DNA of 64,000 nt from Candidatus Kapaibacterium sp. (GTDB lineage Bacteria > Bacteroidota > Ignavibacteria > Kapaibacteriales > UBA2268): positions 2,720,001 to 2,784,000 of the forward strand of contig OY762428.1 in NCBI GenBank assembly GCA_963665665.1, given 5' to 3'. How positions within the stretch are numbered: position 1 is the first letter of the stretch; each line of letters opens with the position of its first letter. Made by a program: the position numbers. Positions 3,001-6,000 of the stretch are shown here, one piece after another.

Positions 3001-6000
3001 AAAACAATCTTGAAGTAATCTTAAACAGAGAAGCCAAAGATGGCTTTGAATTCGACAAATCAATAAATATTTCCGAGAAAGAATGGATACTGATATTCAG
3101 GAAAGAAGTTAAAGAAGAAATTTAAAGACAGTATTGACCACTACTCCCCGGCCACGCCGGGGATATTTCTACTCTTCCCCCTCAACAATTTTAATCTCTT
3201 CTTCCGTCAGGCCGTAGAGTTCATAGACCATCTGATCGATTTCTTTGTCGGTGCGGTCAATGATTTCTTTGATTGCCATGGCTTCTTTTTTTTTGGTTTT
3301 AAAAATTTCCATCCATTCCATTTCATCTAATTTGGAAAGTTTATTTCCAGAAGATTTTTTAACAGATTTATTTAATTCTTTAATGAAGTCTGAAAATTCT
3401 AATTTGTCCCAGTTTTTAAGTTTTTCCGATAATTTTATGTTAGTAAATGAACTCATTAAAAAAATTGTCAATATTTCAATTTTGCTGATATACTTACTTT
3501 GTAAATCTTGATATTGTTCTGATAATTTTGTGATTTTTGTATCAATATTTTTCGGCAAAGGTATTTTCTCTAAAAATTTATTTAAATATGAATAGTATCC
3601 GCCTTGTTTTTTTGTACTTATGGAATGCATGAAAAATTCAACAACTTTAGAATTTAAAAGTGCCAGAAGATAATTACTATCAATTTTATTTTGAACTAAT
3701 CCAAATACTCCAGCCCCTCCACATAAATATGTCATGCCTTTTTTATCTATAGCAAATCTATTCTCTTTACTAATACCAGGTGTCAATATTTTCATCGATC
3801 TAAATAAATCAAGTTTACCTTTTCTTATAAGTTTGTACCAATCAGATGAATTTGATAAGTTCTTTCGTGAATCCTTTCGCTTTTCCAGACTTTCCTTATA
3901 CTTCAGTAGGTAGGAATATGCATTAGGGAATTTTATTCTAAATTGATCTTCTGAAATCAATCTTGTTTCATTTTCAATAAGTTCATAAGGATAAATAACA
4001 TAATCTAAATTATCACTTACATATCCTCTTTTTAAATTTCGTCCTCTTACTACTGGTAATGTTATTCCCTTTTCAATATTATTATCAATATAATCTTGTT
4101 CAGTTAGAATAAATACTGAATCTAAACCAGATGTTAAACCAGTACAAGGATTTGCTATTTCTTTAAGTCTAATACAATTAGACTGTATCTTTGCTAATAT
4201 ATCTCGTTTTTTGGTATTTGAAAACACCCAAACATCATCTGATAATTCAGAAGGATCCATAAGTGTTGGTTTACTTGAATAAAGTTGCTCGGCACCAACT
4301 TTTGATAGCAGCCTATAATTAAATTGTTTAGCTTTCGAATTTTCAATAAGAATTACACCGGGGTAAGTTGTAGCTCCTTCAAACACTGCCAATCCATTAT
4401 AGTCAATAAATTCTATAATTCTTTTTGTTAAAAGAAAACCTCTAATTTTTCTACCATATTCAGCATTTAAAAATTGAATAGTAGTTATGTATGAAAGTAA
4501 GCCATTCTCTTTTAATTCCTTAATACCCTTTTCAAAAAACAATAAAGATATATCAATTCTTTTATGTGCAACAGAATAATTAGTTTTATAATAATCTATT
4601 TCTGAATAGTTTAAATTCTGTACCCTTACATACGGCGGATTACCAATAACAACATCAAAACCGCCCTTGTATTGGGGGCGAAATGCATTTTCCGGCAGGG
4701 TAAGAAATTCTTTTTTAATTTTATCTATCTCCCTGTTTTCCGGCATATTATGCTTAATACGGTTATCGCGTATATATTTAATAGTATTATATAAATGCTC
4801 TTCGCCGCTTATCTCGTTCTTTCCGTACTTCTGCGTCCACAGCTTGGTCTGCGTTACTCCTCTCGCCGTGGCCTTAGTTCCCTCCGAAGCTTCCGAACGG
4901 GAAGAAGATAGGGACGACGACCCGGGGGCGGACAGGGGACTATAGGAAGGGCTACTACCGGCGGGAAGATTCTCGGAGGAGAGACTACTCTCGGGTAGGG
5001 GATTCTCGGATAGAGGATTCTCGGAGAGAGGGTTCTCGGATAGAGGATTCTCGGAGAGAGGGTTCTCGGAGGTACTACCGGCGGGGAGACTACCCTCGGA
5101 TAGAGGACTTCCGGATAGGGGATTCTCGGAAGGGAGGGGATTCTCGGATAGAGGACTTCCGGATAGGGGATTCTCGGAAGGGAGGGGATTCTCGGATAGA
5201 CAAGGGGGCATGCCCCCTTGTCTACTATTAGATAGAGAGGAGAAAGAAGAAGAAAAAGAAGAGGAGGAAGTAGTAGTAGAAGAAGTACTACTCTTACTCG
5301 TTCCCGTCTCTTCCCCGCGTCTTTCGGCCTCCGTTCCGCTCGCGCGTTTTCCCGTCTCTTCTCCGCGTCTTTCGCTTCGGCTTTTCGGTATAGTATATCC
5401 TCTATCTATATTTCTTGCCCTCGAGCTTACGGATTTTATCTTTCCGACTATTTTCGATGTTTCTTCTGCCTCGCAAACTAATAGTAAATGGAGATGATCG
5501 CCGCATATATTATATTCTATTACTGTCAGGCCGTCTTCCTTAACGATTTTGGATATTGCCTTAGTTATTATTATCTCGTCTTCTTCGTCAATCCATTCTG
5601 CTTCCCCTGTTGCCACTTTATAATCGCGCATTCGTTCCGAATAACGGGAATTATGCGTTGCCGTGGTAATATGCCAGGCTTTCATATTTTTTTTAACGAA
5701 TACATCCGGGAACTCCTTCTCCCATTTAAAAGCTTTCTCTCCTGCAACTTCCGGATCATCAATAAGGGAATTACCACATTTAATCTTTGTATTCAGGGCA
5801 GACAGCTTCCTGCCTTTCTTCGCCGTCCTCAGCCAAAGAGACAACTTAGCGATCTCTACGGCTTCCTCGTTAATATCAACGCCATAGAGATTGTTTTCGA
5901 GAATATTGTTTTCAATTTCAGTGAAGACAATACCTTCGTTGAGCATAGATGATCTAAGTTTATCTATGTAGTGATGTTCCTCAATCAGGAATTCCAGTGC

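Follow-up and report, generated by a model that had tools for sequence, protein, structure and literature searches.

The window analyzed here is a stretch of 64,000 nucleotides (nt) from Candidatus Kapaibacterium sp. (assembly GCA_963665665.1, contig OY762428.1, positions 2,720,001 to 2,784,000). It carries a gene for a Type IIG restriction-modification (RM) enzyme, P0001, whose methylase is interrupted in frame by a transposase domain of the Y1/HUH type. This cassette is itself divided by a disordered linker, in which a perfect palindrome resembling a repetitive extragenic palindrome (REP) is written in frame (Table 1). We refer to the parts of the enzyme before and after the cassette as the N block and the C block. 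The architecture is widespread and under purifying selection. A sequence-only reading of the window knew of no functional description of such a fusion, and our literature searches likewise turned up no account of an RM enzyme with an internal Y1 domain.

Table 1. Features of the RM gene and its Y1/HUH cassette, with positions in the window and amino-acid (aa) numbering of P0001.
Feature	Position	Strand	Remarks
Whole gene, open reading frame (ORF) P0001	3169..7353	-	1394-aa single-chain MmeI/Eco57I-like Type IIG RM enzyme
PD-(D/E)xK nuclease motif E77...D88...E102-L-K104	7042..7125	-	Residue invariance across homologs
Methylase N-half, motif I region to EFPDVF; end of N block	5686..6087	-	Pfam MmeI_Mtase aa 423-517, N6_Mtase aa 437-572
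Y1/HUH cassette, aa 557-896 (340 aa)	4666..5685	-	Between EFPDVF and GGFDVVIGNPPY
Y1 N-half (beta1, helix, HUH-carrying beta-hairpin, helix)	5389..5685	-	AlphaFold pLDDT >90 mostly; Foldseek
D-H-L-H (HUH) motif, aa 619-622	5488..5499	-	D, H, H invariant in 101/101
Low-complexity, hypervariable linker that interrupts the Y1 fold, aa 656-831	4861..5388	-	GC 0.50-0.53; pLDDT 36-57, without secondary structure
REP-like perfect 28-nt palindrome TAGACAAGGGGGCATGCCCCCTTGTCTA	5197..5224	.	G before it (5' GTAG); inside linker
Tandem repeats: 15-nt unit x13.7 (SENPL); 48-nt unit x2.2, 100% identity	4989..5200	-	Abut the palindrome's 3' side
Y1 C-half (LWTQK strand, Tyr helix, C-terminal helix, AFRxxY tail)	4666..4860	-	pLDDT 88-98; W839 in 101/101
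Y-I-R-D-N catalytic Tyr motif, aa 860-864	4762..4776	-	Y860, N864, K867, H868 in 101/101
Methylase motif IV GGFDVVIGNPPY, aa 897-908; C block begins	4630..4665	-	Directly after cassette
Remaining Eco57I methylase core, TaqI_C-type specificity domain and C-terminal helices	3172..4629	-	GC 0.26-0.31

Pfam recognizes Eco57I (2e-40, 139 bits), N6_Mtase (1e-14, 55 bits), MmeI_Mtase (2.1e-12, 47.2 bits) and TaqI_C (4e-13, 50.1 bits) in P0001, each above its cut-off, so that one chain holds both a specificity domain and an N6-adenine methylase of the gamma class (motif I, NPPY). Matches at the nuclease end are weak, with MmeI_N at 21.5 bits (cut-off 27) and HSDR_N_2 at 19.3 bits (cut-off 25), and MmeI_hel is likewise weak and under its cut-off. 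A homolog search scored 8000 candidates, all past E 0.001, and the best 120 were listed; among these, none of the 101 insert-bearing and 19 insert-less proteins departs from the nuclease residues E77, D88, E102 and K104. In motif IV of the insert-bearing homologs, N, P and P occur in 101/101 and Y in 100/101. With its nuclease and methylase motifs intact, P0001 looks like a working RM enzyme. Its nearest solved sequences are M.BseCI for the C-terminal part and BrxX/PglX for the methylase N-part, and a sequence search of solved chains with P0001 matched no MmeI chain.

Insert-less relatives run through EFPxVFxK-GGFDVVIGNPPY uninterrupted in the alignment, and the methylase motif is therefore truly split in P0001. 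The sequence-only reading had placed a Y1/HUH domain in frame just before motif IV of the RM methylase, at 4667-5690. We refine the borders to 4666-5685, find DHLH (5488-5499) and YIRDN (4762-4776) exactly where that reading put them, and obtain a Pfam Y1_Tnp match (PF01797) above cut-off over aa 586-646 (35.8 bits, cut-off 23, E 9.8e-9). The AlphaFold model of the cassette, computed from 29 aligned rows, has a high-confidence Y1 core (pLDDT >90) in the order beta-alpha-beta-beta(HUH)-alpha-(disordered linker)-beta-alpha(Tyr)-alpha, where Y860 lies on the C-terminal side within helix 296-312 of the model. The top Foldseek matches are the TnpA structures of ISDra2, IS608 and IS200 (2xm3, 2a6m, 2f4f, 2ec2) with probability 1.0 and TM-scores of 0.52-0.56, over an alignment of ~96 columns that spans the Y1 N-half only, and a PDB profile search with the cassette finds 2xm3 (E 5.5e-5). 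Structure prediction thus agrees with the Y1 fold first read from the sequence. The frame and motifs of the proposed ~340-aa Y1 domain stand, but the domain proper occupies only ~150 of the 340 cassette residues, while ~190 belong to a palindrome-bearing linker inside it. D619, H620, H622, Y860, N864, K867, H868, W839, H561, R570 and M575 are invariant in 101/101 cassettes, and the catalytic residues are conserved as strictly as NPPY. The HUH and Tyr residues, which the sequence-only reading had seen retained in the window, are thus kept across the homologs as well, with no neutral decay.

An intein was considered and ruled out. The junctions, ...KK/AWHIT... and ...EYK/GGFD, have neither an N-terminal Cys/Ser nor a His-Asn followed by Cys/Ser/Thr, and since these splicing residues are missing, the domain stays in the mature protein. 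The first cassette residue in the window is Met (ATG, 5683-5685), at a position where 96/101 relatives have Lys, and free-standing relatives begin M-K-K-A-W-H at the point matching the cassette start. An internal start that would give a product of Y1 and C block is therefore conceivable from the sequence. The cassette DNA is single copy in the window's genome. A second Y1_Tnp gene lies outside the window (locus L126, G000:C1:1821817-1822161; a 155-aa open frame, E 1.4e-20), and is an ordinary gene with a full-length profile match, unrelated to the RM-embedded cassette.

The fusion had been taken for a peculiar insert of one gene, and this view has to be given up, as the architecture is old and widespread. 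A cassette of 164-341 aa occupies the same site in 101 of the best 120 homologs, the other 19 having 0-1 aa there, and scanning a single genome of each species with a pattern yielded 216 cassette loci. We fetched 80 of these, of which 77 lie inside an RM gene and three (L003, L049, L052) stand free amid housekeeping genes; L032, L056 and L077 are frame-shifted and L051 ends early. The nearest relative, P0002, has the same 341-aa insert on an independent metagenome contig. Contigs of a second organism, from a separate study, carry the cassette with in-frame gaps of 78 and 18 nt in the linker, and overlapping exact contigs tile the tandem-repeat region. Runs X1 and X3 probably derive from the source sample and are not independent support, and the stretch 4400-4628 is uncovered in X4 and X5. 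The GC jump within the insert, and the short-read contigs that break in the tandem repeats, could point to an assembly artefact or to a recent accidental insertion unique to this genome. However, the 101 homologs, the 216 loci, P0002, the second-organism contigs and the exact contigs across the repeats rule out a unique or artefactual insert, and the probability of this explanation is negligible. A read joint from 4665 to 5863, which skips 1197 nt, was examined as an excised form and rejected: its sides comprise 38 letters with 5 mismatches and differ in depth, and it stems from another methylase gene sharing the conserved motifs.

Judged by record titles, the hosts are mostly Bacteroidota, with some Ignavibacteria/Chlorobiota and Cloacimonadota, one spirochaete bin and one gammaproteobacterial bin. 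In 401 genomes sampled evenly across the window's phylum, the RM family is present in 20, and within this sample it is absent from all six other genomes of the window's taxonomic family. Such a patchy distribution is common among RM genes. When the Y1 N-half was searched exhaustively with phmmer, 266 cluster representatives were returned (E 0.001); among the best 150 of these, 59 are linked to a methylase and 86 are short proteins (<=260 aa) that lack methylase motifs. These results therefore describe a small, distinct Y1 subfamily with free and embedded members. We checked eight representatives in which the Y1 domain is oddly placed; six of them have methylase domains around Y1 in the same order, several looking truncated, and Y1_Tnp is the only Pfam match of P0298 and P0316. 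The short free Y1 genes P0137 and P0133/L049 retain a few methylase codons on one side or on both, ..EFPNVF.. upstream and GGFDVVIGNPPYG downstream. It looks as if the cassette left an RM gene and took short flanks along, or as if the remainder of that gene decayed. The insert-less P0006 and P0018 have short low-complexity inserts (~15-35 aa) at the cassette site, which may be footprints or may reflect a generally permissive loop.

The linker stands out from its surroundings in GC content, which is 0.26-0.42 on either side, and GC is also block-dependent along the gene. Folded as single-stranded DNA (ssDNA), the palindrome reaches -12.7 kcal/mol (z -6.3), a value equalled by none of 200 shuffles, and it carries GTAG...CTAT ends. 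The linker copy is the only palindrome in the window's gene. As to the tandem arrays, the unit of the window's array (4989-5200) repeats the palindrome's 3' foot and flank, TCTATCCGAG, and in loci L027 and L073 each unit repeats half of the palindrome (the left arm). In all three arrays the complete palindrome occurs once, at one end. From their sequence, the arrays look like repeated duplication beginning at the hairpin.

Palindromes of one type, ACAAGGGGNCATGNCCCCTTGT, recur across the family. The consensus over the fetched loci is ACAAGGGG[G/A]CATG[C/T]CCCCTTGT, and the linker could be delimited in 73 of the 80 loci; a perfect palindrome with an arm of at least 6 is present in 68 of these linkers and with an arm of at least 9 in 62. 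The variants ...AATGGGGCATGCCCCATT..., ...GGGAGCATGCTCCC..., ...GGGGATTAATCCCC... and ACATCGGAGCATGCTCCGATGT keep the symmetry. Among 66 aligned copies, 12 of 13 pairs have changes on both sides, and 90 covarying cells compare with 26.2 +/- 3.7 in shuffles (0 of 500 reach 90) and with 4-26 when the pairing is slid, a test whose result is inflated by the selection of rows for being palindromic. Compared with the 5' GT[AG]G foot of REPs, columns 1-4 of this alignment are unconserved (consensus nnCA). Density provides an independent measure, with 0.57 palindromes per kb in the ORFs and, over 680 kb of flanking DNA, 0.094 per kb. Most members translate the palindrome as TRGHAPLS, three as KGINPLV and the window as QGGMPPC. 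It is thus read in three frames, and the constraint therefore lies on the nucleic acid and not on the peptide.

The palindrome also tracks the insert. Within the sample of 401 genomes of the phylum, a CAAGG-type palindrome is found in the window's gene and in 5/5 other insert-bearing genes, compared with 0/15 insert-less genes (16 loci); L107 and L110 were counted as insert-bearing by NPPY position and open-frame length, because the HUH pattern missed both. Locus L116 of the same sample has two AT-rich palindromes of a different kind. Across the 74 ORFs examined, palindromes besides those of the linker occupy loops, in P0001 numbering, at aa 94-96 (the nuclease D88-E102 loop, 13 loci), aa 351-365 (the boundary of spacer and methylase, 19 loci) and aa 1303-1338 (13 loci), in addition to minor sites.

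Copy numbers were counted with one 20-nt pattern, allowing at most one mismatch, in 55 further genomes and the window's own, and the genomes of 20 of the 80 loci lie outside this count. The pattern has 0-6 copies in 54 of the 55 further genomes and 53 copies in the remaining one, G004, and a control pattern has none in any genome counted. Outside G004, the traced copies belong to Y1-bearing genes, including a free-standing one (L129) and a second RM-Y1 gene (L132). The exception is L131 (G031:C92, ~3482), where a family-type palindrome, perfect over 30 nt, lies between ORFs and has no Y1 homology nearby; it is the sole clearly extragenic copy seen outside G004. G004, the genome of locus L020 and of loci L083-L102, is a 2.1-Mb metagenome bin labelled Gammaproteobacteria. 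Twenty stretches fetched from it hold 38 copies, most of them intergenic and often centred in longer inverted repeats. Thirteen copies lie deep in long ORFs: four in the RM-Y1 gene, eight in six other methylase or RM genes, and one in an ORF without a Pfam match. Among the seven further long ORFs with in-frame palindromes, six are thus methylase or RM genes. In-frame copies are present in at least seven methylase genes of the bin and occupy the inter-domain loops of the RM-Y1 family, also in Y1-less MmeI-like genes, and the sole Y1_Tnp match in G004 is the RM-fused one. The bin has a heavy methylase load (24 Eco57I-type, 18 N6_N4_Mtase and 26 N6_Mtase matches, partly overlapping).

The cassette evolves as a module of its own. 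In the 101 cassette-bearing proteins, distance matrices correlate at 0.71 within the N block, 0.62 between the two Y1 halves and 0.63 within the C block, while correlations across blocks do not exceed 0.28 even for abutting segments. The C block has a history independent of both N block and Y1, and mean identity is 0.58 for the cassette and 0.39-0.71 for host domains. A first FastTree of the whole core was confounded by this mosaic structure, and the N block (aa 1-553) was used instead; its maximum-likelihood tree has at least nine changes of insert state, with small mixed clades at SH-aLRT 96-99. P0002 is 87% identical to P0001 up to NPPY and unrelated beyond, i.e., its C block is replaced, and the contig of the second organism is likewise unlike the window past 4629. 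Sequence comparison thus indicates that the cassette is independent of both flanks. A mobile cassette could have produced this mosaic, but homologous recombination of the ordinary kind, at the two highly conserved coding stretches on either side of the cassette, could equally have done so.

Two explanations would make this mosaic the product of the hairpin itself, in line with the shuffling of target recognition domains (TRDs) that the sequence-only reading had offered as one role. In the first, hairpins in the inter-domain loops are recombination sites at which Y1 exchanges nuclease, Y1 and specificity blocks. The three-block structure with breaks at the cassette borders would fit, as would the clustering of palindromes at discrete homologous loops, the presence of two or more RM-Y1 paralogs in several genomes, and the G004 palindromes at the same loops of Y1-less MmeI-like genes. 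However, the only placeable breakpoint, between P0001 and P0002 and shared by the second-organism contig, lies just after the NPPY codons and off the palindrome, the block borders fall on the most strongly conserved coding DNA, a place where one expects ordinary recombination anyway, and the window's gene has a single palindrome. We regard such a diversity generator, and with it TRD shuffling at the hairpin, as quite improbable. In the second, Y1 and hairpin would form a new kind of mobile element, an in-frame homing domain that enters one conserved site of Eco57I/MmeI-type methylases, leaves these genes intact and, by way of its hairpins in inter-domain loops, drives the exchange of nuclease, cassette and specificity blocks between restriction genes. 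This would be an HUH-driven engine of restriction-specificity diversification; we consider it rather unlikely.

We favor the reading in which the cassette is an active, largely selfish REPtron nested in a Type IIG gene, that is, a Y1 enzyme like those of REP-associated tyrosine transposases (RAYTs) together with its presumed cognate hairpin, and give it a probability of roughly 0.55. An action of the Y1 domain on the palindrome is inferred from three things: the two occur together, there is a published precedent, and the palindrome is dispersed in one genome. In this model, a surface loop of the methylase before motif IV hosts the Y1 ssDNA nuclease-ligase domain and its presumed hairpin, the latter written in frame into the disordered linker of the Y1 domain itself. 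Whenever the strand becomes single-stranded, during replication or transcription, Y1 would bind and cut or rejoin at the hairpin. Further in-frame palindromes would thereby be seeded at tolerant loops of the enzyme's own gene and occasionally genome-wide, and the linker would become hypervariable by tandem duplication of half-palindromes and hairpin flank. The same activity would help the cassette to survive and to spread between RM genes, riding selfishly on a gene that is itself transferred horizontally. With the hairpin inside the ORF, enzyme and substrate would travel together. RM activities are presumed to be unaffected because the cassette sits in a loop. The self-mobilisation suggested earlier gains indirect support from the independent evolution of the cassette, the state changes in the N-block tree and the free-standing copies.

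Several observations weigh against the nested REPtron. With 0-6 copies in 55 of 56 genomes, those traced lying in Y1 genes apart from L131, mobilisation is rare or absent in most hosts. The window's palindrome is unique in its 5.46-Mb genome for all cores of 12-28 nt, and neither it nor the cassette DNA forms a dispersed repeat there. Unlike in REPtrons, flanking REPs are absent (0.094 per kb), most genomes have no dispersed REP family, and the palindromes are perfect and loop-less, which most published REPs are not. The E. coli RAYT structure ranks only 30th in Foldseek (E 0.044), and although REP_Tyr_transpos is the best NCBIfam match of the cassette, it scores 44 bits against an equivalog cut-off of 80, with transpos_IS200 at 28.9 bits against 55. 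The RM enrichment and the single Y1 of G004 call for caution because the bin is incomplete and has dozens of methylase genes. Apart from the choice of rows, the covariation would be the same for a symmetric double-stranded DNA site or an RNA hairpin. The mosaic, as said, has an ordinary explanation too, and all the evidence for the reading comes from sequence and structure prediction.

The scarcity of REPs bears on two further explanations. If Y1 were non-catalytic, it could persist with the palindrome as an inert passenger of a tolerant loop that is lost only by precise deletion, in agreement with the lack of a REP population in most genomes and with a linker unconstrained in length and sequence. 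Neutral decay is, however, incompatible with HUH, Tyr and ~10 more positions being invariant in 101 sequences that are ~58% identical, the palindromes are kept perfect by compensatory changes, and precise loss evidently occurs. An inert cassette is thus very improbable. The other explanation gives Y1 a function for the host, either as a second nuclease against ssDNA or hairpin invaders such as ssDNA phages and conjugating plasmids, or as an autoregulator that binds the hairpin of its own gene or mRNA and times expression after transfer. The catalytic residues are kept in 101/101 sequences though almost no genome has a REP population to maintain, the cassette is conserved like the host domains next to intact RM motifs, and the palindrome-bearing long ORFs of G004 are methylase or RM genes in six of seven further cases. 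On the other hand, free-standing genes of the same Y1 subfamily occur amid housekeeping genes without an RM partner, 86 of the best 150 matches in the representative library are short and have no methylase motifs, and the cassette is dispensable, being precisely lacking in 19 of the 120 close relatives. Moreover, a hairpin-specific enzyme would meet few invaders, and the methylase richness of G004 weakens the RM enrichment. A host function is possible but unlikely, and the defence against ssDNA intermediates proposed in the sequence-only reading is not supported here.

As for the surroundings of the RM gene, its neighbors in the window include an Endonuclease_NS protein, i.e., a non-specific DNA/RNA endonuclease (2027-2836, + strand, 1.5e-53), an RMMBL-motif protein (7857-8726, + strand) and an excisionase-type HTH_17 protein (10137-10949, - strand). 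Very AT-rich stretches (GC 0.24-0.27), including 8750-9750, are found nearby, and the surroundings may represent a horizontally acquired island. No conserved partner gene was seen among the neighbors. A scan for promoter-like sites gave 22 compared with 15.2 +/- 4.6 expected, and for terminator-like sites 3 compared with 4.3 +/- 2.1.

RAYT/REP elements and RM systems are among the best-known classes of semi-selfish bacterial DNA, and here one is nested in frame in the other in hundreds of species, with the catalytic residues of both retained. A single gene that holds both enzyme and substrate would be a test bed for the role of domesticated Y1 transposases and of their palindromes, and restriction enzymes may serve as vehicles for the single-strand chemistry of transposases or be remodelled by it. 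The RM-Y1 proteins are variously mis-annotated as transposase, N-6 methylase, PglX or hypothetical protein, and Y1 surveys discarded them as fusion artefacts.

Among known RM systems, P0001 resembles the MmeI/Eco57I-type IIG(L) enzymes, single chains in which an N-terminal PD-(D/E)xK motif and a helical spacer are followed by a gamma-class N6-adenine methylase (NPPY) and by a specificity domain of the TaqI_C type. The insert-less members of the family are ordinary enzymes of this type, and the kin of P0001 differ from them by the Y1 cassette of 164-341 aa before motif IV.

Inteins and homing-endonuclease genes are selfish in-frame modules that sit at a conserved host site, occur sporadically, have their own history and are also found free-standing. 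The cassette differs from them in using HUH chemistry and not LAGLIDADG or HNH, and in starting K-A-W-H and ending E-Y-K, followed by G. The TnpA proteins of IS200/IS605 elements (IS608, ISDra2, IS200) are the best matches in structure and PDB sequence and share HUH and single-Tyr chemistry on hairpin-bearing ssDNA. Unlike in these elements, the cassette has Y860...N864 instead of Y...Q, and there are neither end hairpins around a multicopy element nor a tnpB.

REPtrons come closer, as they also combine a single-copy Y1/HUH enzyme having YIxNN with a short GC-rich palindrome, mainly in Bacteroidetes hosts, and the 5' GTAG and 3' CTAT of the window's palindrome may correspond to the "double foot" of a REP (Quentin, 2018, PMC6006769). 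As far as the accessible part of that study goes, subclass 2.4 of tnpAREP, from Cyanobacteria and Bacteroidetes, has the motifs NH[IFV]H, WQ and YIxNNP, and its genes hold in-frame REPs between HuH and Y, in a peripheral variable region (PMC6006769). An in-frame palindrome between HuH and Y is the likeness to the present cassettes, whose motifs, set against the published ones (PMC6006769), read DH[LMV]H, WTQ and YIxNNR. In contrast to REPtrons, where the enzyme has a separate gene, that of the cassette is a domain of an RM enzyme. The accessible text of Quentin (2018, PMC6006769) nowhere uses the terms methyltransferase, methylase or restriction, and the accessible part of Bertels et al. (2017, PMC5581495) reports no such fusion. 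In-frame REPs in RAYT genes are therefore already published, whereas the fusion to an RM enzyme is, as far as we found in these sources, undescribed.

Intragenic REPs and Rickettsia palindromic elements provide the last parallel, since they too are short in-frame palindromes tolerated in loops or linkers; the accessible text of Di Nocera et al. (2013, PMC3733652) describes intragenic REPs in replication and repair genes and leaves methyltransferases and restriction unmentioned. Unlike those elements, the palindromes described here are concentrated in the gene whose enzyme presumably mobilises them, and those of G004 also in further methylase genes.

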